Positions 3,322-33,112 of a stretch of DNA of 64,000 nt are shown piece after piece. The notes below the pieces were generated by a model. It did not search any database and was not told where the DNA came from. It worked only from the letters and a program-made list of their open reading frames with translations. Numbering within the stretch: position 1 is the first letter of the stretch; each line of letters opens with the position of its first letter. The stretch lies in the IMG/VR virus record IMGVR_UViG_3300017747_002194, positions 1 to 64,000 of that record. One strand, given 5' to 3'. The DNA is from a virus. Its lineage: Duplodnaviria > Heunggongvirae > Uroviricota > Caudoviricetes. Both the position numbers and the translations under genes were made by a program.

Positions 3322-3798
3322 ATGAATGAAATATGGAAAAATGTAATAGATTATGAGGGTATTTATCAAATAAGTAACTTAGGAAATTTAAAAAATATTA
3401 AAACTAATAAAATATTAAAAGTAAATAATAAAAAAGAAAAGTATTTAAATGTAAGTTTATATAAAAACGGTAAACAAAAAACATTTTATATACATAGATT
3501 AATTGCTTTAATATTTATACCTAACCCTCATAAATTACCAATGATAAATCACATTGATGGTAATAAACAAAATAACGATATTCTAAACTTAGAATGGTGT
3601 ACTAATAGAGAAAATACTTCTCACTATTATTCAAATAAAAGTAATAAACTTCGAGGTGCTTTTTATATTAAAGAAACTAATAGATGGAAAAGTATAATTA
3701 TAGTTAATAATAAACGTATTAATTTAGGGCATTATTTAACAGAAATAGATGCCCATAATGCTTATGTTAAATATTTAACTGAAAATAATTTAAAATAA
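3322..3798 (+). CDS. HNH homing endonuclease (NUMOD4-like N-terminus plus HNH)
   Basis: YQISNLGNL (NUMOD4-like); HRLIALIF..NP...INHIDGNKQNN..NLEW.T..EN is an HNH motif. Confidence 0.85.
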   Translation: MNEIWKNVIDYEGIYQISNLGNLKNIKTNKILKVNNKKEKYLNVSLYKNGKQKTFYIHRLIALIFIPNPHKLPMINHIDGNKQNNDILNLEWCTNRENTSHYYSNKSNKLRGAFYIKETNRWKSIIIVNNKRINLGHYLTEIDAHNAYVKYLTENNLK

Positions 3799-4583: not shown

Positions 4584-6674
4584 ATGAAACAATTTAATGA
4601 AAAAATTCAAGCACAATTTAATGAAATGTGTAAAACTGGTAAATTATTTAGAAGTAGTTTAACTGGTCAACAAGTTTGGGATTTATACATAAATTCATTT
4701 GAACATGATCCTCAATTTAGAGATCCTGAAAGCTCTGAACACAATTGTAATTTATGTAACAACTTCATTAGAAGATATGGTAACATTGTTACTATTGATG
4801 CAAATTATCAAATTGTTTCAATGTTTGATATAGAAGCTACTGGAGAGTTTACTCCTGTTGTTAAAGCATTATCTAAAGCATTAAAATCAGCTAAAATATC
4901 TGAAGTATTCTTTGAAACATTCACAGAATTAAATAAATTAAACTATGAAAAATGTAGTAAAACAAATCCTACATTTAGATTAGGTATTAATAAGAATGTT
5001 AAAAGATATACTAAAGAAGAGGCTGAAAAGTTTGGTGTAGTTAAACCTAATGAGATTAAAGAATTTAACCATTTACATTTAAATGTACCTACAGTATTTG
5101 TAGATATGACAGGTAAATCAGTAGAATCTTTAATGGCTGATTATAGATCTGCTAAAGAAGTATTTCAAAGAGCTATGGAAACAATCTCTTTAGATACTTT
5201 AGAGTTAGTTAAAGATTTAATTAATCAAGGTTCTTTATTAGATGGACAAACTCATTTGTATAAAATTGAGCAAATTATCCCATTTAAAAAAGAGTTTGAA
5301 ACATTGTCTTCTACTCAAAAAGAAAACTGGTGTTGGTTAACATCTTACAAATTACCATTTGCTAAATTTAGAAATGAGCTTATTGGTGTTTTATGTTCAG
5401 AGTTATCTGAAGGTGAAGAACTTAATAAAGCTTGTCAATCTTGGAATAAAAGAGTAGATCCTGTAAATTACATGAAAACTACAGCTCCTATTACTAAGAA
5501 ACAAATTGATGAAGCTAGAAAGTTTGTTGAAGAAAATGGTTATGTAGAGTCATTTGATAGAAGATTTGCTACAATAGATGATATTAAAGCTTCTGAAATC
5601 TTACATTCTAATGTAGGTAAAGCAGAAGTTAAATCAGTATCTATCTTTGATGGAGTTAAATCTACATCTACTAGACATAAACGTAATGAGTTTGATGGGA
5701 TAGAAGAAGTACCTATTGATAAATTCATGAAAGATATTTTACCAGGTTGTACATCCGTTGAAGCTTTATTATTAAATAGCCATGATGGAAATATGGTTAG
5801 TTTAACTACTGCAAATGTAGAAAATAGTAAACCTATTATGAAATGGGATAACAACTATTCATGGACTTTCAATGGTAATTTAGCTGGTAAATCTCAAATT
5901 AAAGCAAATGTTAAAGCTGCTGGTGGTAAAATTACAGGTATTTTAAGAAGTTCTTTACAATGGAATGATGAAGATACTAAAGGTAGTATTGATTTTGATT
6001 TACATTGCAGAACACCTTTTTCAGAAATCTATTATTCTAACAAATTAGATAGAACTAGTAAAGGATGGTTAGATGTAGACATGATTTGTCCTACTTCAAT
6101 TGGAATTGAAAACATTACTTGGCAAGAAATATTGAAAGATGGTATTTATAAATTCTTTGTTAGAAACTTTAGTGGTCATAAAAATCATAAAGGATTTAAA
6201 TTTGAAATAGAATTTGGTGGTAATGTATTTAATTATCAATATAATCAACCATTTCAAGGAGATATTAGTGTAGCTACAATTACTGTTAAAAATGGTGTAA
6301 TGGAAATTGCACATCATTTACCTGAATCTTCAATGTCTAAAGATATTTATGGTTTAGAAACTAATCAATTCCATAAAGTAAACTTAATTTGTTTATCACC
6401 TAATCATTGGGGAACTAATAATATAGGTAACAAACATTATATGTTTATGTTAGATAAATGTAAATCACCAGTATCAATTAGAAGTTTTCACAATGAGAAC
6501 TTATTACCTGAATTAGCTGAACATCGTAAAGTATTAGAAGTATTAGCTACTACTAATATGATTGATTCAACTGACAAACAATTATCAGGACTTGGATTTA
6601 ATGCAACTGTTAAAGATGAATTAATAGTTAAATTAAGTGGAAGCCATAAAAGAACAATTAAAATTAAATTTTAA
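4584..6674 (+). CDS. hypothetical large protein (696 aa)
   Basis: Long ORF translationally coupled to its neighbours; no motif recognized. Confidence 0.65.
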   Translation: MKQFNEKIQAQFNEMCKTGKLFRSSLTGQQVWDLYINSFEHDPQFRDPESSEHNCNLCNNFIRRYGNIVTIDANYQIVSMFDIEATGEFTPVVKALSKALKSAKISEVFFETFTELNKLNYEKCSKTNPTFRLGINKNVKRYTKEEAEKFGVVKPNEIKEFNHLHLNVPTVFVDMTGKSVESLMADYRSAKEVFQRAMETISLDTLELVKDLINQGSLLDGQTHLYKIEQIIPFKKEFETLSSTQKENWCWLTSYKLPFAKFRNELIGVLCSELSEGEELNKACQSWNKRVDPVNYMKTTAPITKKQIDEARKFVEENGYVESFDRRFATIDDIKASEILHSNVGKAEVKSVSIFDGVKSTSTRHKRNEFDGIEEVPIDKFMKDILPGCTSVEALLLNSHDGNMVSLTTANVENSKPIMKWDNNYSWTFNGNLAGKSQIKANVKAAGGKITGILRSSLQWNDEDTKGSIDFDLHCRTPFSEIYYSNKLDRTSKGWLDVDMICPTSIGIENITWQEILKDGIYKFFVRNFSGHKNHKGFKFEIEFGGNVFNYQYNQPFQGDISVATITVKNGVMEIAHHLPESSMSKDIYGLETNQFHKVNLICLSPNHWGTNNIGNKHYMFMLDKCKSPVSIRSFHNENLLPELAEHRKVLEVLATTNMIDSTDKQLSGLGFNATVKDELIVKLSGSHKRTIKIKF

Positions 6675-7375: not shown

Positions 7376-7732
7376 ATGAAATACAGAAAAGGAAAATATT
7401 ATAGTGTAGATTTTAGTAAAGAACTTCCAGAAGATCAGCTTGGGAAATATATTTGGATTTGTAATGAAAATAATAAAAGTCATTACTCTTTTAGAGTAAT
7501 AGAAAAAGGTTCTACTAATAGATTTAATGTTAATGACGATTCTTGTTTTAATAAAAATGATAGTCATGCTTGGTCAAAATCTAAATTAGCTACACCAGAA
7601 GAAATTCAATGGTTGAATCTTTGTATTGAACAAGATAAATATATTCCATTTGAAGAGGCTTTATTATTCTATACTCATAAATCAGATTCATCATTGGAAC
7701 CTATCTATAAAAAATTATTAAACATAAACTAA
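7376..7732 (+). CDS. small paralog family member (type 1, ATPEE-W domain) ending LEPIYKKLLNIN
   Basis: KLATPEEIQWLNLC...IPFEEALL core plus the shared C-terminal tail. Confidence 0.7.
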   Translation: MKYRKGKYYSVDFSKELPEDQLGKYIWICNENNKSHYSFRVIEKGSTNRFNVNDDSCFNKNDSHAWSKSKLATPEEIQWLNLCIEQDKYIPFEEALLFYTHKSDSSLEPIYKKLLNIN

Positions 7733-7737
7733 TTACT

Positions 7738-8073
7738 ATGAACAAATTATTAGACAAATACTACCGTATGCTTTACTTCTGTAAAGGAAAACCTACTACA
7801 TTAGGTCAAATGAGTAATTGGGAATTAGAAGGTATTCTATTACATATTGATAAATACCCTAAAGGTATTTTAAATGGATATGATAAACAAGAATACATTA
7901 ATGCTGTAGATTATATTCTTCAATGTAGAGCTAATTCTAAATCAGAAAGAATGAAAATTATTGAAACTAGGCATGCTAATAATGCATTAGATAAAGCTAA
8001 TAAATTAGCTGATGCAATACTATTAGCAATGCTTAAAACTGAACAACAATATAATAAGAGATTAGTATGTTAA
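7738..8073 (+). CDS. hypothetical protein (no family tail)
   Basis: 111-aa ORF within the tandem array. Confidence 0.5.
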   Translation: MNKLLDKYYRMLYFCKGKPTTLGQMSNWELEGILLHIDKYPKGILNGYDKQEYINAVDYILQCRANSKSERMKIIETRHANNALDKANKLADAILLAMLKTEQQYNKRLVC

Positions 8074-8372
8074 AAAAAGAAGAACTAATTACAGGAGAAT
8101 GTTATGTAAACTCTTATGGAAATATTTTTATATGGGGTATAGGAGATTCAACACATTATTTAGGTAATAGTGCTACAGAATATCATAAAGGTGGTGGTTT
8201 TTTTGATGGTGCTCAAAGATTAGCAACAATAGAAGAGTGTTGGTGGCTAGAGACATGTATAACAATAGGAGATTATATTGAATTTGAAAGGGCTATGGGA
8301 ACATTTAGAACACCAAAGCCTGATGCAGATAAAGATTTAGATATTATTTATAAAAAATTATTAAATGTATGA
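8067..8372 (+). CDS. small paralog family member (type 1) ending DLDIIYKKLLNV
   Basis: RLATIEECWWLETC...IEFERAM core; overlaps its neighbours at start and stop. Confidence 0.7.
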   Translation: MLKKEELITGECYVNSYGNIFIWGIGDSTHYLGNSATEYHKGGGFFDGAQRLATIEECWWLETCITIGDYIEFERAMGTFRTPKPDADKDLDIIYKKLLNV

Positions 8373-8713
8373 AACTACAAGACTGTATAGATGGTGAAAT
8401 ATATTATTGGGAGTCTACAAGGTTTAGGTATATCAATTGGTATAAAAAACCAGAATATCCTTCAGACTTAAATATTAAATGTTATATATCAATAGATAGA
8501 ACTAATTTTTCTTTTAATTCTGCTAGAAATACAAATCCTCAAAATATTAGATTAGCTACACCAGAAGAGAAACATTGGTTACTTTGCTGTGTAAAAGCTG
8601 TTGCATATATTAGTTTTGAAGATGCTTTACTATCATTTACACCAATTAGAGAACCAAATCTTGAAGAGATTAAAGAATTAGAACCTATTTATAAACGTTT
8701 ATTAAATATATAA
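8369..8713 (+). CDS. small paralog family member (type 1) ending LEPIYKRLLNI
   Basis: RLATPEEKHWLLCC...ISFEDALL core. Confidence 0.7.
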   Translation: MKLQDCIDGEIYYWESTRFRYINWYKKPEYPSDLNIKCYISIDRTNFSFNSARNTNPQNIRLATPEEKHWLLCCVKAVAYISFEDALLSFTPIREPNLEEIKELEPIYKRLLNI

Positions 8714-9066
8714 TGATAAAAAATGAAAATTTAATTATTGGAGAATGTTATTTTTGTAAAGATTATGGAGGACATAAAAATAATAGTTACATTCTCAAAT
8801 ACTTAGGTGATATTGACGAATGTCCGCATATAGCTAGTGAAGATAATGATATGCATAAAAATACATTTTATTTAAAAGGAGGCTTTAGCAATAAAGTAAC
8901 TAGATTAGCAACAGCTGAAGAAAAACACTACTTAGAAGAATGTATGATTCATAGTAAATTTATTCCTTATGATGAAGCAATGCTTACTTTTAATAAAAAT
9001 CATAAATCTTATAAAAATGAATCTAAAGAATTAGTACCTATTTACAAAAAACTATTAAACTTATGA
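8713..9066 (+). CDS. small paralog family member (type 1) ending LVPIYKKLLNL
   Basis: RLATAEEKHYLEEC...IPYDEAML core. Confidence 0.7.
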   Translation: MIKNENLIIGECYFCKDYGGHKNNSYILKYLGDIDECPHIASEDNDMHKNTFYLKGGFSNKVTRLATAEEKHYLEECMIHSKFIPYDEAMLTFNKNHKSYKNESKELVPIYKKLLNL

Positions 9067-9296
9067 GAGGGCACAGATTAAACAAGAGACAACCTTTGTC
9101 TCAAGCAATTAAACAGCATGCTAAATTACATGCTAAATACAAAGAGTATTCTGAAAAGACTATTCAAGAATTAGAAGAACTATTACCTATCTTAGGTGGT
9201 GGGTATCGTGAAGTATGTTTATCAGTAATGAAAGAAAAGTTTGTAGCTGATTTAAAATCTAAACAAACTGAAGAAATACCTGAAGGAGAAGCTTAA
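9063..9296 (+). CDS. hypothetical small protein
   Basis: 77-aa ORF coupled within the array; no family motif. Confidence 0.45.
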   Translation: MRGHRLNKRQPLSQAIKQHAKLHAKYKEYSEKTIQELEELLPILGGGYREVCLSVMKEKFVADLKSKQTEEIPEGEA

Positions 9297-9297
9297 T

Positions 9298-9603
9298 ATG
9301 GAAGAGTTTAAACTACCTCAATATTGGAAAGTAAAGTGTGATGAATCTCAAGATAGTGTTTTAACAGATTATATAAATTCGTTAGGTGTATCAAGAAAAA
9401 AATATTATAAAGGCATAGGACATAATAATTGTGTTTATTGGTCTAATAAAGAGTTAATAGGAGATAAACATTATTCTTATAATGAATTTGAAACTCCAGG
9501 TATTACAGAAATCACATATGAACAATTTGAAGAATATGTATTAGGTATAAGTAATAAAGAAGATTCAGATTTAACTGAAATTTATAAAAAATTATTAGGA
9601 TGA
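9298..9603 (+). CDS. small paralog family member (type 2, LPxxW...ITYEQFEEYV domain) ending LTEIYKKLLG
   Basis: FKLPQYWKV...VLTDY...ITYEQFEEYVLGI. Confidence 0.7.
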   Translation: MEEFKLPQYWKVKCDESQDSVLTDYINSLGVSRKKYYKGIGHNNCVYWSNKELIGDKHYSYNEFETPGITEITYEQFEEYVLGISNKEDSDLTEIYKKLLG

Positions 9604-9911
9604 AAGAAAGATTTATATTGCCAGAAAAATGGTACATTGAAGGAGATTCTCATCGTAAAGATGCTAGAGAAGCATGGAATAGCTTGAATGTAGACAAAGG
9701 AGAGTCAGACAATTATGCTTTTTATAAAGGATGCTTTTATTTTTTAGATCTAACAGGTAACAAAGAATATACTACAGGAAAATTACCTGATGATTATATT
9801 GAAATAACACTTGATGATTTCTTAGAGTATGTCGTAGGTATAGCTCCAAATGTAGAAGTAAAAGAAGATCCTGAATTAAATGAAATACTTATTAAACTTT
9901 TAACTAGATGA
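9600..9911 (+). CDS. small paralog family member (type 2) ending LNEILIKLLTR
   Basis: FILPEKWYI...ITLDDFLEYVVGI. Confidence 0.65.
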   Translation: MKERFILPEKWYIEGDSHRKDAREAWNSLNVDKGESDNYAFYKGCFYFLDLTGNKEYTTGKLPDDYIEITLDDFLEYVVGIAPNVEVKEDPELNEILIKLLTR

Positions 9912-10120
9912 TAACAAAAGATAGAGTATTAGAAATTATCTCTAAAAGAGATCCAGGTGAATTAGAACAAATACATGTTATCTCTAGATATATCTTTGAT
10001 AAAACTGGAGAAGATATAACAGGTATAAGTATTAATCCACCACAAGATTATGGTATGTTTAATGTTATGTTACAGATGTACCAAGTTGCCAAACAATATT
10101 ATGGAAATGGAGAGAAATGA
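9908..10120 (+). CDS. hypothetical small protein
   Basis: 70-aa ORF; its stop overlaps the polymerase start. Confidence 0.45.
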   Translation: MITKDRVLEIISKRDPGELEQIHVISRYIFDKTGEDITGISINPPQDYGMFNVMLQMYQVAKQYYGNGEK

Positions 10121-12044
10121 AGTTGACATATTATTTAAAGAATTACAATCTACAGGGTATAAGAAATTATACTTTGTAGGTAATTCTGAAGTATTTGAAA
10201 GTACTTTATATGAAAAAGCAGATATAACACAATGTTCAGATTGGTTAGATAAAATACCTGAAGTTAACTTAGATACAGAGACTGAGGGAATGTTTAATCA
10301 TTCTAATAAGATAGTAATGCTTCAATTAAATTGGGGAAATACTAGCTATGTTATAGATGTAAGAACTATAGATATTTCTCCTCTTAAAAAGAGATTAGAA
10401 AAGATATTAGTAGTAGGTCAAAACTTAAAGTTTGATTATAAATTTTTAAAATTACATGGAATTGAATTAGATAATATTTATGATACATTGTTAGCAGAAT
10501 GTTGTATAACAAATGGTAAAGAAGATAGAGAATTAAATCTAAAAGCTTTAGCTTATAAATATTGTAAAATTGAATTAAATAAAGATGTTAGAAATCAATT
10601 TGTTAACTTAAATGGACAACCATTTACTGAAGCACAAATTGTGTATGGTGTAGGAGATGTTACTTGTTTAACTGAAATTAAAACTAAACAATTAGAATTA
10701 ATTAAACAATTAGATATAGTAGAATGGGTGAATAATGAAATGCAAGCTTGCTTACCATTAGCTGATATAGAGTATAATGGAATGGGCTTTGATAAAGAAG
10801 CTTGGTTAAAACTTGCAAATAAAGCAGAATTAAATGTAGTTAATTACACTGAGGAATTAGATGAGTTAACTAAACAAGAACCTAAATTAGCTAAATTTGT
10901 CAGACAAGAAGTTCAAGGTAACTTATTTGCTGATATAGATGAATCTTTTAGCCATGGTAGAGCTGTAGACATTAAATGGTCTAGTCCTACACAAATGGAT
11001 AAAGTATTCAAAGCTTTAGGTCTAGATATTGAAAAAACAGGTGAAAGATTTTTGACTAAGTATCAAAATGATTATCCTTTAGTTAAAAAATTTATTGACT
11101 ATAAGAAGCAGGCTAAATTAGTTACTACTTATGGTAAGAAATTTTTAAGTTATATAAACCCCACAACACAAAGAATTCATACTAGTTTTTGGCAAATATT
11201 AGATACTACAAGAGTATCTTCAGGAGATAAGTATTCTCCTAATATGCAAAATATTCCAGCTAAAATAGAATATAGAAATTGCTTTATTCCTAGAAAAGGG
11301 TATAAAATGGTTTCTTGTGATTTTAGTGGTCAGGAATTAAGATTAACAGCATTTGGTAGCAAAGAACCTTTATGGGTAGATGCCTTTAACAAAGGAGAGG
11401 ATTTACATTCTAATGTAGCTTCAATGGTATTTCATGTACCTTTAGACAATGTTAGAGATAAACCAGAATTTCTTAGAGGTAAATCTTATAGAGATGCTGC
11501 TAAAACTGTAAACTTTGGATTAGTTTATGGTATGTCAAAATTTAAATTAGCTGATACATTATCTATTGAAGTAGATGCTGCTGATATGATTATTAAAAAC
11601 TATTTTAAAGCTACTGTACAACTTAATAACTTCTTAGCAGGTTGTAGAGCTTATGGTATGAAATATGGCTATATAAGAAGCTTTGCTCCATATAAAATCA
11701 TTAGATATTTCCCTAAATGGAAGCCTGTTAAAGAGGCTATGGATTTCAAAGAAATAGGTTCAATAGAACGTGCTTCAATGAATACTCCTATTCAGGCTAG
11801 CGGTGGTCAAATGACTAAAAGAGCTTTAGTTAGATTAAGAAATTATATTAAAGCTAATAACTTACAAGAAAAGGTTTATATAGTTATGACTGTTCATGAT
11901 CAAATAGATTGTGAGGTTGAAGAATCATTTGTAAATGAATGGTCTTTAATTCAAAAAGAAATAATGGAATCTTCTGGTAGAGAAATAATTACTAATGTAC
12001 CAGTATTATCTGATATAACTATCAGTGATTGTTGGACTAAATAA
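10101..12044 (+). CDS. polA: DNA polymerase I-type (family A) with 3'-5' exonuclease domain
   Basis: Exo motifs LDTETEG and YDTLLAEC. Pol motif A is DFSGQELR, motif B is RDAAKTVNFGLVYG and motif C is VHDQIDCEV. The track begins at 10050, but the start is more plausibly ATG 10101 (MEMERNEV), overlapping the upstream stop. Confidence 0.9.
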   Translation: MEMERNEVDILFKELQSTGYKKLYFVGNSEVFESTLYEKADITQCSDWLDKIPEVNLDTETEGMFNHSNKIVMLQLNWGNTSYVIDVRTIDISPLKKRLEKILVVGQNLKFDYKFLKLHGIELDNIYDTLLAECCITNGKEDRELNLKALAYKYCKIELNKDVRNQFVNLNGQPFTEAQIVYGVGDVTCLTEIKTKQLELIKQLDIVEWVNNEMQACLPLADIEYNGMGFDKEAWLKLANKAELNVVNYTEELDELTKQEPKLAKFVRQEVQGNLFADIDESFSHGRAVDIKWSSPTQMDKVFKALGLDIEKTGERFLTKYQNDYPLVKKFIDYKKQAKLVTTYGKKFLSYINPTTQRIHTSFWQILDTTRVSSGDKYSPNMQNIPAKIEYRNCFIPRKGYKMVSCDFSGQELRLTAFGSKEPLWVDAFNKGEDLHSNVASMVFHVPLDNVRDKPEFLRGKSYRDAAKTVNFGLVYGMSKFKLADTLSIEVDAADMIIKNYFKATVQLNNFLAGCRAYGMKYGYIRSFAPYKIIRYFPKWKPVKEAMDFKEIGSIERASMNTPIQASGGQMTKRALVRLRNYIKANNLQEKVYIVMTVHDQIDCEVEESFVNEWSLIQKEIMESSGREIITNVPVLSDITISDCWTK

Positions 12045-12070
12045 TAAAAATCAATTAACATTATTTTAAT

Positions 12071-12370
12071 ATGAATGAAGAATATAATATAGGAGATTGG
12101 ATTTATATAATTAGAGCTCAGGGTGGAGCTTATGGTGCTAATAATGAGTATGCTAAAATTGTTGAAAATACTTTATCAAATGTTTCAGGTTGCGAACATG
12201 GTCTTTGTGTTCAAGTATATCCATCTAAACGTATTTGGCGTATAGGTAATATTTTTGAAGCTAGACGTGCTTTAGAACATGAAATAAGAGAATTTTTATT
12301 TATGGATGATGATTATAAAGAAGACACATCTTACTTAATACCAATATTAACTAAACATCAATTAATATGA
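12071..12370 (+). CDS. small paralog family member (type 3, SH3/KOW-like N-terminus) ending EDTSYLIPILTKHQLI
   Basis: IGDWIYII...; conserved tail. Confidence 0.65.
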   Translation: MNEEYNIGDWIYIIRAQGGAYGANNEYAKIVENTLSNVSGCEHGLCVQVYPSKRIWRIGNIFEARRALEHEIREFLFMDDDYKEDTSYLIPILTKHQLI

Positions 12371-12678
12371 AAGAAAAATATATACCTAAAGTAGGTGATA
12401 CTGTTAAATTACTTAAATCTAAGGTTAACTGGGCTACAGATGAAGAATGTGGAGATGGTGAAATATCTATGGATGCTATTTTAGAACAGACTCCTATTGT
12501 AATTATTACTGCAGTTGAAGATGATGAATATAGTGATGGGGAATATAATATAAGATTTGATAATGATGGTGGTTGGCAATGGACTACTGCTAATAAACAT
12601 TTTAAATTGTATAAACCAACTATTAAATCTAATAAATCCCACAATAAAGCACTTATAAAATTATTAAAAAATGTTTAG
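12367..12678 (+). CDS. small paralog family member (type 3 variant) ending ALIKLLKNV
   Basis: VGDTVKLLKS...; weaker tail. Confidence 0.55.
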   Translation: MKEKYIPKVGDTVKLLKSKVNWATDEECGDGEISMDAILEQTPIVIITAVEDDEYSDGEYNIRFDNDGGWQWTTANKHFKLYKPTIKSNKSHNKALIKLLKNV

Positions 12679-13237
12679 AAAAGATGAATATATAATTACA
12701 CTAGAATTAGATAGTTATACAGATGTTTGTGCTAAAGAAAACTATTGTTTTAAAGTAGAAAGAGAAGATGATTATTTAACTATGTACGTAGATTTAGAAG
12801 GAATCTCTAATGGACATTCAGTTTTAACATTTGATAAATCAAGAAGATTGAAAGACTGGCGTTATGCTACTCCCGAAGAAATTGAAGAATATGAAAGATT
12901 AGGTAAACCATATGATGTAACTACATTAAATCAATTTGTATTACCTAAGAAATGGTGGCTTAAAATTACTACAAATGAACAAGATACTGTATTAACTGAC
13001 TATTGTAATCAAAAATTTAGTACTCAAACAGGACCTATAGGTAGTAGATTAACTCAACCTATTTTTTATTATAGTGAGAAAATAGGACACTTATGTTGGA
13101 CTGTTGGAGAGAATAGAGCTGATGAATCATTTACTGAAATAACCTATTCTCAATTTCTTAAATATGTGTTAAATCAACCTGAAGTTGCAGATAATTATTC
13201 ATATTTAATACCTATGATTGAAAAACTAAATAACTAA
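12671..13237 (+). CDS. two-domain fusion of type-1 (RYATPEEIEEY) and type-2 (LPKKWWL...ITYSQFLKYVLNQ) modules, ending YSYLIPMIEKLNN
   Basis: Both sub-family signatures occur in one 188-aa ORF. Confidence 0.7.
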   Translation: MFRKDEYIITLELDSYTDVCAKENYCFKVEREDDYLTMYVDLEGISNGHSVLTFDKSRRLKDWRYATPEEIEEYERLGKPYDVTTLNQFVLPKKWWLKITTNEQDTVLTDYCNQKFSTQTGPIGSRLTQPIFYYSEKIGHLCWTVGENRADESFTEITYSQFLKYVLNQPEVADNYSYLIPMIEKLNN

Positions 13238-13239
13238 CT

Positions 13240-13521
13240 ATGGAAGAAAAATGCCAATATGTAAAAGTTACAAGAAATTCAGGTTCTCCTGGGGCTTGGT
13301 TTAACGATAAAATAGGATTATGTCTTAAAGTAAATTTAAAACCAAAATCATCTAAAGTATATAGAGTTATAGGATATACTTGCAATAATTATGATTATGT
13401 ATTTATTGATTTTAATTTTTGTGAATTAATTGACAAAAAAGAATATGAGGTATATTGGAATTTATATAAAGAAGACACTTCATATCTTATTAATCTACTA
13501 ACTAAACATGGTATAACATGA
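13240..13521 (+). CDS. small paralog family member (type 3) ending EDTSYLINLLTKHGIT
   Basis: Tail near-identical to that of 12071. Confidence 0.65.
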   Translation: MEEKCQYVKVTRNSGSPGAWFNDKIGLCLKVNLKPKSSKVYRVIGYTCNNYDYVFIDFNFCELIDKKEYEVYWNLYKEDTSYLINLLTKHGIT

Positions 13522-13847
13522 AAGAAGAATATGTATTTCCTGAAAAATGGCAAATAAAAATAACTAAAGAAAATTTTGATATTATTTCAAAATACTATTC
13601 TATAGTAGATCCTTGTTATAAGGATAATGATTGTATTGGTCATATTATAAGATCTCATAATAATCTTTATGAACCAGTAGAAAAAGGAAGTTCACAGTCT
13701 TTTTTAGGCTTTGATCCTATGTTTACAACTATTACTACCGAACAATTTATAGAATATGTTTTAAACCAAAGAGTTTATACACCTAATAAACCTGAAAATT
13801 ATGATTATTTAATTCCTTTAATTAAAGAACTAGACAATGGAAATTAG
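13518..13847 (+). CDS. small paralog family member (type 2) ending YDYLIPLIKELDNGN
   Basis: FPEKWQIKI...TTEQFIEYVLNQ. Confidence 0.7.
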   Translation: MKEEYVFPEKWQIKITKENFDIISKYYSIVDPCYKDNDCIGHIIRSHNNLYEPVEKGSSQSFLGFDPMFTTITTEQFIEYVLNQRVYTPNKPENYDYLIPLIKELDNGN

Positions 13848-14283
13848 AGAAGGTATAAGATATCAATATAACCATAATAAATTTGCAAGAATTCATCAAT
13901 CAAAAGAAAATTTAAATCATTTTTATGCGATATTTGAAGAGGATTACTCACATTGTTGTGATTATGACAGTGAATCTTGGGTAAAAGATTTTAAATCTAG
14001 TGATTTAAAATTAGTTGAATATCCCTATCAATTAGGAGATTGGATTTATTGTATAAATGATAAATTTTCCTGTGGTAGTCCTAAAATTACACAAATTACT
14101 AGAATTACACATCATGGAAATACTCAAATATATATTAATAATGAAAGTACTTACTTAAATATTATTGATTTTAATGCTTGCTATAGACCTTGTTTTAAAG
14201 AAGAGATTCCTTATGAACAAGTAATTAAAGAAGATTTGAAATATTTAATACCTTTTATTAATAAATTAAACAATTATGGCTAA
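13837..14283 (+). CDS. small paralog family member (type 3) ending LKYLIPFINKLNNYG
   Basis: LGDWIYCIND...; conserved tail. Confidence 0.65.
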   Translation: MEIREGIRYQYNHNKFARIHQSKENLNHFYAIFEEDYSHCCDYDSESWVKDFKSSDLKLVEYPYQLGDWIYCINDKFSCGSPKITQITRITHHGNTQIYINNESTYLNIIDFNACYRPCFKEEIPYEQVIKEDLKYLIPFINKLNNYG

Positions 14284-14590
14284 AGGAACATGTTATAAAC
14301 CAGGGGACATTGTAATTGTTAAATCTGGAAAACAAGGAGGTATGGGTAATGGTATATCTCAAGATAATCAAGAAGCAGAAATAGTAGATTACGATGAATT
14401 TAATAAGCATCGAAGTACATCAGGTTTAATAGATGATATGCATGAAAATATGTATATTGTTAAATTTGAGTATAAAGGTTTTACACATTATCGTAGAATT
14501 ACTGAAGATCATATAATTAAAAACCTTTATAACTCTCCTGAAGATATGTCCTATTTAATTAAATTTATGCAAGATAAGGAGGTAATATGA
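14276..14590 (+). CDS. small paralog family member (type 3) ending MSYLIKFMQDKEVI
   Basis: PGDIVIVKSGKQGG...; tail variant. Confidence 0.6.
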   Translation: MAKGTCYKPGDIVIVKSGKQGGMGNGISQDNQEAEIVDYDEFNKHRSTSGLIDDMHENMYIVKFEYKGFTHYRRITEDHIIKNLYNSPEDMSYLIKFMQDKEVI

Positions 14591-15684
14591 TAATGGAATG
14601 TGTGTATTGTACTTCTGAAGAAGAGTATCTTATTGTAGAAAAACATATTAATTATACTTTTCATGCTAGATTTGAAAAAGGTAGATATGAATGTATTTAT
14701 TGGAAAGATAATTGTCATGGATCTTATGATAGTGCTTTAAAAACAAAAGATATAATATTTACTTTTGAAGAATGGTGTAAAATAAATAATATAAATCAAA
14801 TAACAAATAAACAAACAAGTATGATTGAACAATTAAAAAATGTCTTAAGTGTGACTTATGATAATCCAATTTTAAGAAGAACAACAGTTCCTTTATTTAT
14901 GTCTAATCCTGGCTTAGGTAAATCTACTATTATTAAAGAATTTGCTGCTAGCAGAGGTGTTAAAATGGTTAAGATGACTCTTAGTACTAGAATGCCTAAT
15001 GAAGTAACTGGTATGACAATGCCTGATTTAGTTAATGATAGATTAGTCTTATTAGACAGTCATCAGTTAACAGCATTAGAAGATGGTGATATTTTATTTA
15101 TTGATGAGGTATTTAATGGTACTTTAAAGCAAACTTTAGATGCTTTCTTAAATTTCTTAGAAGATAGAATGTTACTTTCAGGTAAAAAATTAGCAGATGT
15201 GCTAATTGTTGCTGCTAGTAATCCTCAAGGATTAATTAACATTACTCCACAGATTAAACAACGTTTTATTAGATATGATTTAAAATTCAGTCCAGTTGAA
15301 TTTGAAGATTATTTAAAGTATAAGTTTGGTATGCCTGAATCTATTTCAAAAAATATCTCTATTGCTATCAATAAAGAGAAATTTGAACAAGAGCATTGGG
15401 AATATGTTACTCCTAGAAGTATGGAAAAAGCAATTAACCAAATTGGATGTGGTCTAGAGAATCCACATGATACATTATTAATGCCTTTCTTAACTAAAGA
15501 AATCGAAGCTCCAATTGATATTGCTGCTTTAAATGTGAAAAAAGGTGAAAATGTAGAATATCTTAAACTATTAAAACTTTTTGTTCAAAAGAATAATAAG
15601 GATATTATAGAGAAAGAAGCTGAAGAAGCTAAATCAAAAGTAAAACCCCAAAAATCAACTGGTAAAAAGCTAGTTGAAGCATAA
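14587..15684 (+). CDS. MoxR/CobS-like AAA+ ATPase (AAA_5 type) with Cys-rich N-terminus
   Basis: Walker A NPGLGKST, Walker B ILFIDEVF, then ...VLIVAASNP. N-terminal C-x2-C ... C-x6-C-H. Confidence 0.75.
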   Translation: MIMECVYCTSEEEYLIVEKHINYTFHARFEKGRYECIYWKDNCHGSYDSALKTKDIIFTFEEWCKINNINQITNKQTSMIEQLKNVLSVTYDNPILRRTTVPLFMSNPGLGKSTIIKEFAASRGVKMVKMTLSTRMPNEVTGMTMPDLVNDRLVLLDSHQLTALEDGDILFIDEVFNGTLKQTLDAFLNFLEDRMLLSGKKLADVLIVAASNPQGLINITPQIKQRFIRYDLKFSPVEFEDYLKYKFGMPESISKNISIAINKEKFEQEHWEYVTPRSMEKAINQIGCGLENPHDTLLMPFLTKEIEAPIDIAALNVKKGENVEYLKLLKLFVQKNNKDIIEKEAEEAKSKVKPQKSTGKKLVEA

Positions 15685-15702
15685 CAACCAAAACCCTAAC
15701 AA

Positions 15703-16653
15703 ATGATTCAAAAAATCACAAGTAAAAGAGTAGAGTTGCCAGTGGTATACTTAGTAGAAACTCAAGAAGACTTTGAACAGCTTCCTAAGGGTCTACCGTA
15801 TATTATTGGTACGCAAGCAGAACTAGGATTTATCACTACGTTCTTAGAATTTCAAGTTTTATTAAAATCTTGTCAAAAAACCTTATTACCTATTAAATGG
15901 TTAGATTGTCTAACTAGAATAGGTTTTGGTACTAGTCAAGTTAAAACTTATCAATTAAAATCAGGAGGAACGTACCATGCTAGTAGTACAGGTTCTTCTA
16001 ATTATAACCTAGCAATTGATGACTTTGTCACAGATCAATATTTTGTTGATTTTGATAAGTTAGCAGAATTAAAAATATTACCAGTTTGGTTAGATGATTT
16101 AAAAACTGCTATTGAGACAAACATTATTGATGAAGTAACCTTTGACCCCACAGCTTTTAATAAGCAATTAGGAATGAATGTAGGAGCGTCTGGTGTGAAA
16201 CACAATTTGAAAAATCTATTAATTTTAGATATTTCTAGTTCAATGCCAAAATCAGTAGTTTTAACAATTACTAACTTAGCTAAGTTAATGTCGAAGAAAT
16301 TCTATGCTGACGTAATATTAACAGGGGTAAGAAGTTACTTAATTGATTATGAAGATGTACCTAAAACTGACATTGTTGGAGCTGTAAGTGAATACGGTGG
16401 AGGTAATGAAGGTGAAATGTATGTTAAAATCATTAAGGAACCTCGTGAGTACAATACAGTAATTTCTTTTGGAGATAATGATAGTCCAGAGTACTATTTT
16501 GACAAAGGAGATAAATGTAATTTTAAAGTACAGACACTTTATTCATTACATACTGAAGGTAATCGCACTAGTAATGTTACTGGTTATGCAAGATGTTTCA
16601 AACCTACAACTACACATATTGTGAAGGACTGGGTTTCGACAATTAACAAATAA
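15703..16653 (+). CDS. von Willebrand factor A (vWA) domain protein, CobT-like partner of the AAA+ ATPase
   Basis: MIDAS-like LLILDISSSM (D-x-S-x-S) and its position immediately after the MoxR-like ATPase. Confidence 0.6.
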   Translation: MIQKITSKRVELPVVYLVETQEDFEQLPKGLPYIIGTQAELGFITTFLEFQVLLKSCQKTLLPIKWLDCLTRIGFGTSQVKTYQLKSGGTYHASSTGSSNYNLAIDDFVTDQYFVDFDKLAELKILPVWLDDLKTAIETNIIDEVTFDPTAFNKQLGMNVGASGVKHNLKNLLILDISSSMPKSVVLTITNLAKLMSKKFYADVILTGVRSYLIDYEDVPKTDIVGAVSEYGGGNEGEMYVKIIKEPREYNTVISFGDNDSPEYYFDKGDKCNFKVQTLYSLHTEGNRTSNVTGYARCFKPTTTHIVKDWVSTINK

Positions 16654-16690
16654 ATATCAATAAACAATAAACAATTAAAAAACAATTAAC

Positions 16691-17182
16691 ATGGAATTTT
16701 TAGAATTAAAAGATTTAGAATTAAACAAAGCAGGATACTTAGTAAGTAAAGCTTCAAAAAAACCAGTAACACATGCAGCATTTGTTGCTGAGCAAAATAA
16801 TGCTCACTACACTGTAGAATTAGCTAAGGCTATTAAAGGTAAAACTTTTAAATGCGGTAAAACTGATGATTTAGATGCTATTAAGAAAGAAGTAATGGCT
16901 GCAATCAATGCTAAATCTATTAAGGAGTTTGTAGCAACTCCAGAAAAACCAGTAAGCAAAGTTAACGATGAGTTAGTTAAATTTGCATTAGATTTTGATA
17001 AATACAATGATCAAAAATCTGAAGTAGCTAAAATCAACTCTATCATGGCAGAATTCTCTACTATTGATGGTGTAGAAACAGTTGGAGATTATTTCTCTGA
17101 AGGTTTAGTAAAATTAAACAAGATTTATTCTTGTGCTGAAATTTTAGCTGCTGTTCAAGCAACTGCTGAAACTTTAAAATAG
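16691..17182 (+). CDS. hypothetical protein
   Basis: 163 aa; no motif. Confidence 0.55.
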   Translation: MEFLELKDLELNKAGYLVSKASKKPVTHAAFVAEQNNAHYTVELAKAIKGKTFKCGKTDDLDAIKKEVMAAINAKSIKEFVATPEKPVSKVNDELVKFALDFDKYNDQKSEVAKINSIMAEFSTIDGVETVGDYFSEGLVKLNKIYSCAEILAAVQATAETLK

Positions 17183-17196
17183 TAAATTAAATAAAT

Positions 17197-17263
17197 AATA
17201 GGTGCTCGGCATAATCAGCGTTGGGAGTTAAATGAAGGAATTGTGGAATTCAGCCTATTATTT
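17197..17263 (+). ncRNA. structured intergenic element, family copy B
   Basis: Starts AATAGGTGC and ends CAGCCTATTATTT (termini inverted-complementary). The internal GGGAGTTAAATGAAGGA matches copy C, and a T-run follows. Confidence 0.35.
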
Positions 17264-17280
17264 ATTTTAAATTTAATTAA

Positions 17281-18024
17281 ATGAAAGAACATTTTGAGAA
17301 TTCGATTGAATTATTAAAAAAACAACAAATTAATGGTTGTATTACAGGTTCCTGTATGCTTGAGTTCAATGAAAGTTGGAATCAAGACATAGATTTATTT
17401 GTATATGACAAAGCTAGTTTTACTAAAATACTTTGGTTTATGTATTATAATCCAATGTTTACTATTTTAGATCCACTAGAGAATCATAAATTTAAGGATT
17501 TTGTTGATAATGATAAATCATCATTAGAACAACTTGGCTTAATCACAATAAAATTTAAATATAATTTACTAATTGATGTAAATGTTATTTATAAAAAGTT
17601 TAATAAAACATGTTTTGATGTAATCAGTAATTTTGATTTAGATCTAATAGCTACTGCTTATGATATTAAAACAGGTAAAACAATCTCTCTTAGAGAATCA
17701 ACAGGATTAGTAGGTACTTGGAATAAGTGGAATCCAACATTTTATCAGAATGAGTTCTGGTCTACTAAAAGACTATTAAGACAGTTTGAACGTGTAATTA
17801 AATACACAGAAAGAGGTTATGATTTAAGCTCTGTAACAGATAAATATATATCTATTGTAGAAGAAATCATTCAATCAGAGAACTTTTATAAAACAGAAAA
17901 AGGAACAAAATACTTTGAAGATAATATTGAAACCTTTGAAGTAGTATTAAAAATATTACAGGAGTGGAAGAAAGAACAAAAAATAACTCCTGTCCAATTA
18001 CTAACGTTAAAAACCTTAATATAA
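17281..18024 (+). CDS. putative Pol-beta-superfamily nucleotidyltransferase
   Basis: ITGSCMLEFNESWNQDIDLFV fits the hG[GS]x(9-13)Dh[DE]h signature. Confidence 0.45.
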   Translation: MKEHFENSIELLKKQQINGCITGSCMLEFNESWNQDIDLFVYDKASFTKILWFMYYNPMFTILDPLENHKFKDFVDNDKSSLEQLGLITIKFKYNLLIDVNVIYKKFNKTCFDVISNFDLDLIATAYDIKTGKTISLRESTGLVGTWNKWNPTFYQNEFWSTKRLLRQFERVIKYTERGYDLSSVTDKYISIVEEIIQSENFYKTEKGTKYFEDNIETFEVVLKILQEWKKEQKITPVQLLTLKTLI

Positions 18025-18206
18025 TGGGTAATGAACTAGATAACCTCCTTGAGGAATTAAGAAGAATGAAAAGAGATGTCCCTAATTTTAATGCTAAAAC
18101 AGTTTGGGAAGGGATTGCACAAAGAAAAGATTTCTCAGAAATGGGATTTACATCATTGGAAGAATTTGAACAATGGATTTCAGATAACCCATATGCTAAC
18201 CTTTAA
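18024..18206 (+). CDS. hypothetical small protein
   Basis: The track ORF 17964-18206 overlaps the previous gene; a TAATG coupling at 18022-18026 makes M at 18024 (MGNELDNLL) the likely start. Confidence 0.45.
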   Translation: MGNELDNLLEELRRMKRDVPNFNAKTVWEGIAQRKDFSEMGFTSLEEFEQWISDNPYANL

Positions 18207-18216
18207 TATTTAAATT

Positions 18217-18477
18217 ATGTCAGATATTAAAAATTTTATAGAAGAAAATAATATTTCTTTTGCTGAAGGTGAAAGAAATACATCAGTTGTAACTTTAATT
18301 GGTTATGCACAACATTTGAAACTAACTAAATCTGAATTTAGAGGAGAGTTAGCACAAGAAATTAAAGATGATATGTTTATTGGAGAAGAGATTGAAAGAC
18401 TTTGGGATTATTGTGTAACTAAAAAGTATAAAAACTTTTGGAAAAAACAAGAAGCTAAATTACAATACACATTTTAA
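18217..18477 (+). CDS. hypothetical protein
   Basis: 86 aa. Confidence 0.5.
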   Translation: MSDIKNFIEENNISFAEGERNTSVVTLIGYAQHLKLTKSEFRGELAQEIKDDMFIGEEIERLWDYCVTKKYKNFWKKQEAKLQYTF

Positions 18478-18480
18478 ATT

Positions 18481-18777
18481 ATGATAATAGAACCTAGACA
18501 TTCAACTCTTTTTTTAGATTTTAAAAAATATGCAAATGTGTGTAGTAGTAAAAATCCTAAACTTATTGGTTATGTAGCAATTAATAATGGTGTTATAGAA
18601 ATTACTAGAGAAAAAACTAAAGATGGTAAGTTATGGGTTGTAAAGGTTGTAAAAAGTGATAAATACAATTCTGATTTATCTAAAAAGTTTAGAACATATA
18701 ATGAAATAAAACCTTATATAAGAGAATTAAACTATGAAGATACTTCTCAATTAGTCTCACTATTAAATAATTTATAA
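18481..18777 (+). CDS. divergent member of the small paralog family, ending YEDTSQLVSLLNNL
   Basis: C-terminal tail resembles EDTSYLIxLL. Confidence 0.5.
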   Translation: MIIEPRHSTLFLDFKKYANVCSSKNPKLIGYVAINNGVIEITREKTKDGKLWVVKVVKSDKYNSDLSKKFRTYNEIKPYIRELNYEDTSQLVSLLNNL

Positions 18778-19253
18778 TGAAAAGCTTTTTATTAAAAGAT
18801 AATAAACCTATTGTAAAATGGTCTATGATACCAGATAATACATTCTTTGAAGGTAAAGTGCCTGAAGGTTATGCATTAGCTGTAGCTCCATCAGATAATT
18901 ATGTTATATTAGATGTTGATGTTAAAAATGGTAAAAATGGATTTATTCATATACTAGAAACTAAAGGAATTATTGATGAATTAGGTAAAACATTTCATTA
19001 TTCAACTAAATCTGGAGGTGAGCATTATTGGATTAATTATACAGGTGATAAAACTCTTTTAAATAAAGCTACTAAGTATGGATTAGATTTAAGAGTTGCT
19101 AAAGGTTCTTATGCTATGGGATATGTTAAATATCCTCATAATGTAGACATTAGACAATGTATTCCTTTAATTAATAAATCTTCTATGGAATTAAATGTGT
19201 GGTTAGAATCATTATTTCAAGGAGTTAAAACATATGAAAAAAGAATTAGTTGA
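18777..19253 (+). CDS. PrimPol-like (bifunctional primase/polymerase N-terminal domain) protein
   Basis: VILDVDVKNG (hhhDhD) and SGGEHYW (GGxH) motifs. Confidence 0.5.
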   Translation: MKSFLLKDNKPIVKWSMIPDNTFFEGKVPEGYALAVAPSDNYVILDVDVKNGKNGFIHILETKGIIDELGKTFHYSTKSGGEHYWINYTGDKTLLNKATKYGLDLRVAKGSYAMGYVKYPHNVDIRQCIPLINKSSMELNVWLESLFQGVKTYEKRIS

Positions 19254-19623
19254 AGAAAGACTTTTAAAAAGAGCTCACCGTAAAGCAATGAGAAGTAGTA
19301 GGCGTATAAATCATGGAAATATGAAAGAAAAATTTGAATTACCTGAAAAATGGGCCATTAAAAGAACAATGTATAATTCTAAAGCTGTAAATGATTGGAA
19401 TAACAATCATCCTTTATTTAAAGAACAGCGTAGACATCACGCTACTTCTATTGTAGATGGTGGTTACTTTTATAGCGATACAGCACATTGGGGAGAACCT
19501 TTACTTGCAGGATATACAGAAATTACATTTGAACAGTTTCAAGAATATGTATTAAATATAAATCCTGTATCTGATAAATCAGAAGATTATTCTTATCTAA
19601 TCCCTTTAATTAAAACATTATGA
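19234..19623 (+). CDS. small paralog family member (type 2) ending DYSYLIPLIKTL
   Basis: FELPEKWAIK...ITFEQFQEYVLNI. Confidence 0.7.
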   Translation: MKKELVEERLLKRAHRKAMRSSRRINHGNMKEKFELPEKWAIKRTMYNSKAVNDWNNNHPLFKEQRRHHATSIVDGGYFYSDTAHWGEPLLAGYTEITFEQFQEYVLNINPVSDKSEDYSYLIPLIKTL

Positions 19624-19928
19624 TAGACAGATTACCTAAAAATTGGTGTATCAGACAAGATGCACATCAAGATGTTTGTGATTGGTTTAATGCAAAGTAT
19701 GGAATAAGTTCATTTTTAGAAGGAGGGTATACTTATTTATGTAAAGTACCTTTAAAAGATACTGGTAGTATATTTCAAGAAATAGCTCCTATTGGATTTT
19801 TAGAAATTACTTATGAAGAATTTAAATTTTTTATTTTAGATAAAGAACATCTTAAAAAAAGAGTAAAATCAAAACCAGAAGATCTATCGTATCTGATAGA
19901 CTTTTTAAAACAACAACAAATAAATTAA
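19620..19928 (+). CDS. small paralog family member (type 2) ending LSYLIDFLKQQQIN
   Basis: LPKNWCI...ITYEEFKFFILDK. Confidence 0.65.
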   Translation: MIDRLPKNWCIRQDAHQDVCDWFNAKYGISSFLEGGYTYLCKVPLKDTGSIFQEIAPIGFLEITYEEFKFFILDKEHLKKRVKSKPEDLSYLIDFLKQQQIN

Positions 19929-32344: not shown

Positions 32345-32626
32345 AATACCAAATAACTACATACTAGTTCTTTAATAACTAATAACCTTTAGTAATTTAA
32401 ATTTTTACACCTAGTATTGTAGTTATTTGTTCTTATTGTACCAACTTCTTCCTCTTTAATATGTGTCCCAGTCTATGACCTGTTCTTAGAACATCTCTGT
32501 TAAATGAAAGTTGAGTCCCTTAGACAAGAGGATCCCTTGATTCTAAGTAGCTATATAAGATTGATTTTCCAGCAATGCTTATATTAATCCAGTTAAGCTA
32601 AAGTCGGCTGGTTTTAAAAATAAACT

Positions 32627-32905: not shown

Positions 32906-33102
32906 TACAAGCTTTTTTAACAACATTATTATGGAATACAGTAGGAACACTTATATTTATTATTTGGATACTAAGTATAATGTTTATATGTATTCAAAGA
33001 AATTTCAATAAAGAAAAATATTCTAAAAAAGAATTTATTCTAGATTTAATTATACCATTTAGGTATTTTTATAAAGCTTTTTACAATTTATTTAAAAATT
33101 AA
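32878..33102 (+). CDS. small membrane protein
   Basis: 74 aa with two hydrophobic segments. Confidence 0.45.
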   Translation: MGIKIRRKMIQAFLTTLLWNTVGTLIFIIWILSIMFICIQRNFNKEKYSKKEFILDLIIPFRYFYKAFYNLFKN

Positions 33103-33112
33103 TACAAATTAA

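Follow-up and report, generated by a model that had tools for sequence, protein, structure and literature searches.

Ankyrin/PRANC (F-box-like) proteins, which form multigene families in poxviruses, combine a variable target-binding part with a conserved C-terminal element that docks onto one machine, and their copies turn over rapidly. In SspB, a folded domain is followed by a flexible linker and a C-terminal XB peptide that tethers the protein to the N-domain of ClpX. Our computational analysis concerns sixteen small genes in a stretch of 64,000 nucleotides of viral DNA (positions 1 to 64,000 of the IMG/VR record IMGVR_UViG_3300017747_002194; this whole stretch is called the window below). 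Their products have mostly unrelated N-terminal bodies and share a C-terminal peptide, referred to as the tail. To our knowledge, both described systems differ from this one. The PRANC element belongs to eukaryotic viruses and is a folded domain that binds host Skp1 and has no homology with the tails, and SspB is a single adaptor, not a family, with sequences unrelated to the tails.

Other terminal elements invite comparison as well. The tip of the single-stranded DNA-binding protein SSB (D-D-D-I-P-F-COOH) resembles the tails in that a flexible docking tail, in a replication context, closes with an acidic stretch and then hydrophobic residues. However, the topology is reversed, with many partners for a single SSB tail there and one tail for many proteins here. 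The consensus differs too, the tails of classes A and B described below are helical and not placed at the extreme end, and none of their bodies is an OB-fold SSB. In the SSBs that the related phages encode themselves, the end is DSLPF, DNLPF, DDIPF or DDLPF (D-x-[IL]-P-F), which is distinct from the tails. The capsid-targeting sequence of phage T4 is N-terminal and cleaved and has head genes as neighbours, whereas the tails are C-terminal and their genes lie among replication genes. Dockerin-cohesin pairs and the docking domains of split polyketide synthases (PKS) and nonribosomal peptide synthetases (NRPS) likewise join separate module polypeptides through a short terminal element, with fusion as the alternative. 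In contrast to the tail of 5-15 residues, a dockerin is a Ca-binding domain of about 70 residues; homology is lacking, and the setting here is intracellular and phage-encoded. A scaffold with repeated receptor domains was not recognisable among the window genes.

In the MoxR/VWA systems (CbbQ-CbbO, NorQ-NorD and RavA-ViaA), as in the window, a gene for an AAA_5 ATPase is followed by a gene with a DxSxS motif resembling a MIDAS (an adhesion site that depends on a metal ion). CbbQO recognises a substrate carboxylate through the MIDAS, together with the C-terminal peptide of the substrate (PMC4660213). The tails of the window would offer a similar combination, an invariant acidic residue and a C-terminal peptide. 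The known systems have one dedicated client each, whereas here 3-16 putative clients or adaptors per genome would have to be served. A further difference is that the ATPase has an N-domain resembling one of the tailed bodies (type 2), and the VWA assignment of its neighbour is by motif only. Full-text literature searches for a described equivalent returned nothing relevant. Because the defining sequence or fold features of each testable known family are absent, we rate the tail system as a new kind of feature with a mechanism that we infer from the sequences.

The shared C-terminal tail

All sixteen open reading frames (ORFs) listed in a preliminary description of the window are present. They encode proteins of 93-188 amino acids, are located without exception on the + strand and belong to a total of 150 ORFs in the window. 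Six of them form cluster 1 (7376-9911) upstream of the DNA polymerase gene, and ten form cluster 2 (12071-14590) and cluster 3 (18481-19928) downstream of it (Table 1). In every one the tail motif lies 0-7 residues before the stop codon. The tail had been called invariant, a view that has to be replaced by two classes within the window. Class A, with the consensus E-[DN]-x-[SD]-Y-L-I-x-[LF]-[LI]-K-x(0-7), is found in the ten genes of clusters 2 and 3, and class B, with the consensus [DE]-L-x-x-I-[YL]-[KI]-K-L-L-x(1-3), in the six genes of cluster 1. The last residues of both classes vary (N, V, I, L, G, R or T). Each polypeptide carries one tail, always at the C-terminus, and this includes the two-module proteins.

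Two scoring matrices separate the tailed proteins from the remainder of the window. By leave-one-out scoring, 12 of the 16 members beat every position of the 134 other window ORFs. The second, external matrix was trained on 56 tails from other genomes and on none from the window. Its top 11 of the 150 window ORFs are 11 members, in each case at the C-terminus, with scores of 13-30.6 compared to 11.0 for the best non-member. This supports the proposal that proteins with unrelated bodies share a C-terminal peptide. A further tailed member was not found in the window by either scan.

The similarity is not a consequence of AT-rich composition, an objection that the preliminary description itself had raised. 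Among class A tails, pairs of codons for the same residue differ synonymously at a frequency of 0.42, identical to the 0.42 expected from free codon choice under genome usage, and nucleotide identity by codon position is 0.47/0.73/0.43. In the tails of 12071 and 13240, for example, 6 of 12 codons for the same (degenerate) residue differ synonymously. Since synonymous sites are randomised, the conserved object is the peptide and not a promoter, a coupling signal or the product of recent gene conversion. Tail conservation thus acts at the protein level. In pooled best-matching homolog pairs, identity amounts to 64% in the tails versus 38% in the bodies, and single pairs reach 93% versus 34%. Across 70 aligned type-2 homologs, information content is 1.5-2.8 bits in the columns of the tail, comparable to the core of the fold, and 0.5-1 bit in those of the linker.

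The body is followed by a flexible, partly acidic linker and then by the tail, an amphipathic helix of 10-14 residues. Conserved in this helix are its hydrophobic face (positions 0, +1, +4 and +5) and an acidic residue at position -4. The AlphaFold2 (AF2) model of the type-2 protein 19234 has a confident body, a linker with a predicted local distance difference test (pLDDT) value of 56 and a separate tail helix (90-99) with a value of 77. Confidence drops between body and tail in both the type-1 and the type-2 model.

BLAST comparisons of the window bodies after removal of the tails recovered two real families, type 1 with four members and type 2 with five members plus the C-terminal half of 12671. 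These correspond to two of the three body types distinguished at the outset; the third proved heterogeneous, and the window bodies comprise at least eight unrelated families in all. The bodies of 12071 and 13837 have only a 10-residue GDWIY stretch in common (E 0.013), and those of 12367, 13240, 14276 and 18481 are each without a match to the rest of the 16-protein set. According to the structure models, type 1 is an Sm/Tudor-like barrel with helices and type 2 an alpha/beta fold, for which a relative was not found in the PDB.

In Pfam-A, PHROGs v4 and NCBIfam 20, the threshold was reached by no small protein scanned and by no fused long protein of the kind described below. The small proteins scanned directly were 13 of the 16 for Pfam, 10 for PHROGs and 4 for NCBIfam, with 18481, 19234 and 19620 left out. 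The best score with a curated family was 18 bits for DUF6762, with a cut-off of 27. Homology to a solved structure was likewise not found. The metagenomic type-2 relatives P0001-P0112 have no precomputed Pfam domain except for one weak match on P0021. Searching type 1 and type 2 against GenBank phages by tblastn gave no match, and a structure search in BFVD gave one unnamed borderline match. Bacterial and archaeal genomes (185,579 species), searched as a clue to the host, contained no match.

Fused relatives and tail dialects

Scanning IMG/VR with the type-1 alignment yielded one syntenic relative with tailed genes (L001) and eight contigs of a fused type (25-103 kb), in which the type-1 motif opens a protein of 471-827 amino acids. 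The fused proteins are built from tandem modules, namely type 1, X (EYVEC...STKEAYDAQF), type 2 in one to several copies, a GD-type barrel and YPIGT. Tail-stripped window bodies match them with E-values of 1e-5 to 1e-13, and profiles of the X and YPIGT modules pick up single tailed genes in other genomes. Fused modules without tails, of the kinds type 1, type 2, X, YPIGT and WRYAT, were found in L002-L008 as well as in metagenomic proteins by the hundreds. The fused gene is located just upstream of the DNA polymerase gene, which is the place of cluster 1 in the window.

An exhaustive search with the type-2 profile returned 3,037 clusters at 50% identity. The best matches are proteins of 235-960 amino acids with 2-7 copies of the module, mostly aligned only to the end of the body; matches of 95-190 amino acids align through the tail. 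In one contig (L029, IMGVR_UViG_3300009870_000682), a 188-residue frame on the - strand that covers 11084-11116 contains a type-2 module with a class A tail (PEDFSYLIKFFKKIRNK) and continues into a GD-type module with a tail of its own (YKYLIKLFRKLNIK). This frame is either a recent fusion of two tailed genes in which the internal tail was kept or an assembly error.

Conservation in related phages was one of the points on which the preliminary description was to stand or fall, and on this point it stands. Tails on unrelated bodies recur in every relative examined, and the tail rule holds in dozens of related metagenomic genomes. The loci inspected around the matches comprise at most 20 kb, so statements on the absence of genes from other genomes are provisional. 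Four tailed genes each were counted in L001 and L014, eight in L011, at least nine in L018, twelve in L019, at least thirteen in L020 and three in L022. Clustering of 72 tailed proteins from eight genomes gave at least 15 body groups without detectable similarity. A scan of IMG/VR with a strict DNA pattern for tail A returned mostly an unrelated conserved frame and two true contigs only.

In the close relatives of the window, class B is always located upstream and class A downstream of the polymerase gene, whichever polymerase is present. This is a family A enzyme in the window (10050-12044), in L014 and in L019 (10490-12982), and an unrelated protein of about 612 amino acids, by eye apparently of family B, in L001 (7657-9495) and L011 (226-2061). 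The polymerase gene of L022 occupies 15748-18524. PolA genes are interrupted by an HNH or LAGLIDADG endonuclease gene in L019 and L022. For the suggestion that the tail binds the polymerase or its clamp we found no evidence, as the polymerase swaps between families A and B in close relatives with the tails unchanged. The bacterial beta-clamp motif (Q-L-[SD]-L-F or Q-L-x-L-x-L) fits none of the tails; QLVSLL in 18481 has S at position 4. This motif belongs to an extended peptide, and the tail is predicted to be helical.

A third dialect, tail C, ends in Y-E-L-W-COOH in six small genes of L015 and two of L073, and its variant Y-E-[IV]-Y-COOH is found in seven genes of L021. Bodies with this dialect are of type 1, type 2, YPIGT, GD-type and orphan kinds. 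Type-1 and type-2 bodies bear tail A, B or C depending on the lineage. Bodies and tails are therefore combinatorial. A fourth C-terminal ending, a longer helical extension (...LKLEEIKSKLIK.KYDKEDIKDIIECLSL), was noticed in the type-2 homologs P0029, P0075, P0083, P0093 and P0096, and in a single gene only (5798-6334) of L016.

Identity to L019 amounts to 84-98% for neighbouring core genes of the window and to 31-83% for tailed genes, some of which L019 lacks. Between polymerase and ATPase, close relatives have 0, 1, 6 or 8 genes.

A proposed docking motif and its candidate partner

A common docking, targeting or degradation signal, as originally suggested, is still the right class of explanation, because the tail is shared, selected at the protein level, conserved and combinatorial. 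Within this class we tentatively favour the view, quite possible although somewhat short of probable, that the tail acts as a short linear motif for docking, by which unrelated modules are collected on a common partner. Such a motif fits because the tail is exposed, position-specific, present once per polypeptide, lineage-specific and dispensable when the modules are fused. The tail would plug many different modules into one shared binding site, so that the modules, presumably with binding targets of their own, would be brought together on the common partner. More distant crAss-like phages join the same modules covalently, in a tandem tail-less protein of 470-960 amino acids, so that the lineage of the window is a split version with plug-in modules. 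In the split version, modules can be gained, lost and diversified gene by gene. Class B upstream and class A downstream of the polymerase gene would probably address two sites or two partners.

The leading candidate for the partner of the tails, as far as can be judged from sequence, is the phage's own MoxR-type AAA_5 ATPase together with its VWA-like neighbour. The ATPase matches AAA_5 with an E-value of 2e-10 (41 bits, cut-off 22) and bpMoxR with an E-value of 2e-6 (27.3 bits, cut-off 27). Its N-terminal 80 or so residues (14587-14830) align with the type-2 body profile over 61 columns (hhalign probability 91%, E 9e-7). In L020 this N-domain is found as stand-alone tailed genes just upstream of the ATPase gene (2139-2444 and 2425-2724). 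The ATPase signature DEVFNGTLKQ occurs in 30 IMG/VR contigs, 24 of which contain tailed genes and none of which is of the fused type; a metagenome scan with the ATPase gave one locus. The VWA-like protein has invariant NLLILD[IV]S[SG]S and FGD[ND]D motifs in its C-terminal half in seven genomes. It has more than 202 conserved homologs, and a precomputed Pfam domain is recorded in 0 of 202.

The genes of the ATPase/VWA-like pair occupy part of the interval that separates cluster 2 from cluster 3. Wherever the sequence covers this region, the pair was seen in all tail-bearing genomes that we examined, the YELW genome L073 among them. As far as a single exact string of 10 residues can tell, the ATPase signature DEVFNGTLKQ is missing from the eight contigs of the fused type, which also speaks for the pair. 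A reading in which tail C genomes have no such pair is ruled out by its presence in L073. In L015, a protein of 377 amino acids (18661-19794) with a weak Peptidase_M28/M42 match (E 1e-4) is encoded downstream of the primase gene, at the usual place of the pair in tail A genomes.

Several observations weigh against this partner or against a single docking code. The VWA-like protein has no match in Pfam, NCBIfam or PDB, and the VWA call is a motif recognised by eye. Between tail A/B genomes and the tail C genome, the ATPase/VWA-like block has about 60% identity; therefore, either one receptor would have to cope with very different tails, or another molecule serves as receptor. Co-occurrence of tails and pair may reflect the shared ancestry of one clade. 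Finally, IYKKLL of class B and SYLIPLI of class A are not statistically linked within the window in two alignment registers. The link between both classes rests on the intermediate ELNEILIKLL of 9600, on the same columns being occupied on homologous type-2 bodies, and on a near-invariant Tyr in the type-1 alignment.

If a docking code exists, the function of a large portion of crAss-like phage 'dark matter' would become approachable for the first time. It would also represent a natural case of one architecture in fused and in split, tag-assembled forms, and a short peptide tag that can be transferred would become available together with its matching partner. What phage-encoded MoxR-type ATPases do, a role otherwise unexplained, becomes testable. 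A broader version, which we regard as doubtful but worth stating, is a clade-wide peptide code. In this case a C-terminal tail in at least three dialects would turn up to about one sixth of the genes into plug-in modules for one machine, possibly a MoxR-VWA remodeller. The N-domain of the remodeller would then itself be one of the modules, and the system would achieve without covalent bonds, much like a cellulosome, what the multi-domain protein does in the sister lineages.

Docking on a separate partner has to be weighed against association of the tails with each other in a small helical bundle, resulting in homo- or hetero-oligomers without a hub. The amphipathic tail helix has a leucine-rich face, and a bundle would also replace covalent fusion. 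Nevertheless, self-association appears unlikely. The helix has about three turns, the YELW/YEIY tail with its 4-5 residues cannot bundle, and the last 14 residues of the window tails have net charges between -2 and +4 with no complementary pattern. A dialect of 4-5 residues argues for a peptide bound in a pocket rather than for a coiled coil or a tail-tail bundle.

An exposed C-terminal peptide behind a flexible linker on many unrelated proteins could also be a degron, serving either to have these proteins removed at a set time by a protease of the host or the phage, or to make them decoys that saturate a host protease. The E-N-Y followed by hydrophobic residues in some tails seems to us to recall ssrA tags loosely. 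However, an ssrA-type end (L-A-A-COOH or similar) was not seen in the tails, the terminal residues of which vary. With 0-7 variable residues behind the class A/B motif the tail has no defined end, and the fused homologs are untagged. All positions of the 10-residue helix are conserved, and known bacterial C-degrons need less conservation than this. We consider this explanation improbable.

Targeting of the modules to the inner membrane by an amphipathic helix of the MinD/FtsA type has little to recommend it over docking on a protein. A C-terminal amphipathic helix behind a linker is indeed present, the maximal hydrophobic moment is at or above the 90th percentile of window proteins in 10 of the 16 tails, and tails of L018 are strongly basic (e.g. 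YLIKYLKKLKIK). Against this, the polar face in general is not net basic and sequence specificity is not low: an acidic residue is invariant and the net charge goes down to -2 in the window and in L020. Moreover, the YELW dialect is too short, and lipid binding needs no such sequence specificity. Membrane targeting is therefore very unlikely.

Similarly poor prospects are given to a signal for virion packaging, ejection or export, which would deliver the modules to the next host cell. This had been among the first suggestions, and secretion and packaging systems typically mark diverse cargo with one common signal at the end; the bodies, which evolve fast, also look like effectors in host interaction. 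But the genes are part of the replication module and do not share their strand with the structural genes, which use the other one, and the fused homologs carry no such tag.

It is extremely improbable that the tails merely result from a signal in the nucleic acid or in translation near the ends of genes, such as a promoter, a coupling element or a nascent arrest peptide, or that they remain from gene fission: 13 of the 16 genes overlap the next start codon, but synonymous sites are as variable as under free codon choice, the motif-to-stop distance varies by 0-7 codons, tails are equally conserved before intergenic gaps, and the junctions of fused proteins lack tail-like segments. As to fission, look-alikes such as IPEYVEC and NEILIEAKARF had suggested by eye that a tail derives from the beginning of the module that followed in a fused ancestor. 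This was not supported by a matrix of 86 tails, with which seven fused proteins gave nothing above 7 bits and nothing at junctions.

Tailed genes and their neighbourhood

Coordinates of the tailed genes and of the two candidate partner genes are compiled in Table 1.

Table 1. Tailed genes of the window, followed by the genes of the candidate partner. External score, score in the matrix trained on tails from other genomes; E, E-value of the body against fused proteins unless stated otherwise.
Position	Strand	Feature	Body or domain	Length (aa)	Tail	Remarks
7376..7732	+	tailed module gene	type 1	118	class B, 7688-7729, SSLEPIYKKLLNIN	body matches N-terminal module of fused proteins, E 1e-8 to 1e-10
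8067..8372	+	tailed module gene	type 1	101	class B, 8331-8369, KDLDIIYKKLLNV	ATGA overlap with next gene; E 5e-10
8369..8713	+	tailed module gene	type 1	114	class B, 8672-8710, KELEPIYKRLLNI	E 7e-13; identity to L019 ortholog 64% (body), 86% (tail)
8713..9066	+	tailed module gene	type 1	117	class B	protein of the type-1 structure model
9298..9603	+	tailed module gene	type 2	101	class B, 9565-9600, SDLTEIYKKLLG	body against fused-protein modules, E 4e-9
9600..9911	+	tailed module gene	type 2	103	class B, ILIKLL form, 9870-9908, PELNEILIKLLTR	only cluster-1 tail picked up by the class A matrix (score 11.2); tail form common in metagenomic homologs
12071..12370	+	tailed gene	orphan, GDWIY motif	99	class A, 12317-12367, KEDTSYLIPILTKHQLI	external score 25.2; similarity searches with the body gave no detectable relative
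12367..12678	+	tailed gene, weakest member	orphan	103	degenerate, 12634-12675, KSHNKALIKLLKNV	
12671..13237	+	two-module tailed gene	KDDYIV...WRYATPEE module and type-2 module	188	single class A, 13187-13234, ADNYSYLIPMIEKLNN	both modules colinear with residues 273-437 of the L007 fused protein, E 4e-19
13240..13521	+	tailed gene	orphan	93	class A, 13468-13518, KEDTSYLINLLTKHGIT	external score 23.8
13518..13847	+	tailed module gene	type 2	109	class A, 13791-13844, PENYDYLIPLIKELDNGN	external score 28.7; E 3e-8
13837..14283	+	tailed gene	orphan, GDWIY motif	148	class A, 14227-14280, KEDLKYLIPFINKLNNYG	external score 22.7
14276..14590	+	tailed gene	GDIVIVKSG body	104	class A, 14537-14587, PEDMSYLIKFMQDKEVI	ATGA overlap with the AAA_5 ATPase gene; external score 19.0; ortholog L011:3239
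18481..18777	+	tailed gene	orphan	98	class A, 18733-18774, YEDTSQLVSLLNNL	identity to ortholog L019:16980 34% (body), 93% (tail)
19234..19623	+	tailed module gene	type 2, basic N-terminal extension	129	class A	protein of the type-2 structure model
19620..19928	+	tailed module gene	type 2	102	class A, 19875-19925, PEDLSYLIDFLKQQQIN	highest external score, 30.6
14587..15684	+	candidate partner, MoxR-type AAA_5 ATPase	Pfam AAA_5, bpMoxR			
15703..16653	+	candidate partner, VWA-like protein	DxSxS (MIDAS-like) motif			always adjoins the ATPase gene

Taken alone, gene 12367 is a weak member with low matrix scores (NKALIKLLKNV). It is supported by its ortholog L011:2603, with identities of 31% for the body and 93% for the tail. 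The type-2 module of 19234 is preceded by a basic N-terminal extension of 29 residues (19234-19320, KRAHRKAMRSSRR), which is probably real since it is conserved in the homologs P0005, P0006 and P0023. By eye only, the body of 13240 is like the N-terminal half of the protein P0065, in which a type-2 module is fused to that half.

Most tailed genes are translationally coupled, as had been noted. Their junctions consist of 8 ATGA and 2 TAATG overlaps, 3 overlaps of 8-11 nucleotides and 3 gaps of 2-5 nucleotides. The genes are located in the replication module on the + strand, and structural genes are on the - strand beyond 33 kb. That they form an early region was an assumption of the preliminary description.

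The genome of this uncultured phage, in which the sixteen tailed genes were counted, comprises 91 kb. With a G+C content of about 28% the window is AT-rich, and its genes change from the + to the - strand at about 33 kb. Megablast against 50,697 GenBank phages produced zero nucleotide matches. The best matches of the window PolA are crAss-like phages, at 29-30% identity only, and the phage may thus be considered a candidate crAss-like phage.

Some neighbouring genes deserve mention. The 696-residue protein encoded just upstream of cluster 1 (4584-6674) has an ortholog in L019 that is 91% identical and carries a precomputed Pfam domain, DUF8224 (PF26675); the window copy gave no Pfam match at E <= 0.001. 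A conserved protein of 247 amino acids (17281-18024) has homologs in L018, L019, L020, L022 and L073 with the precomputed Pfam domain Gad2 (PF26128). These matches are weak in four of the five genomes, and the window copy is without a Pfam match. The family name presumably refers to an anti-Gabija protein.

A LAGLIDADG homing endonuclease gene (23208-23930, Pfam E 2e-30) is located among the replication genes, and the 158-residue ORF at 3322-3798 has by eye the look of an HNH/NUMOD4 endonuclease. Many endonucleases of the HNH, GIY-YIG and LAGLIDADG kinds are also found in the related genomes, at varying sites. Giant ORFs occupy the - strand at 33250-36699 (1,149 amino acids), 37146-49328 (4,060 amino acids) and 53859-58772 (1,637 amino acids), the largest of which recalls what we take to be the virion-packaged RNA polymerase proteins of crAss-like phages. 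The GC skew flips from +0.13 to -0.25 at about 32000-34000, exactly at the switch of the genes from the + to the - strand.

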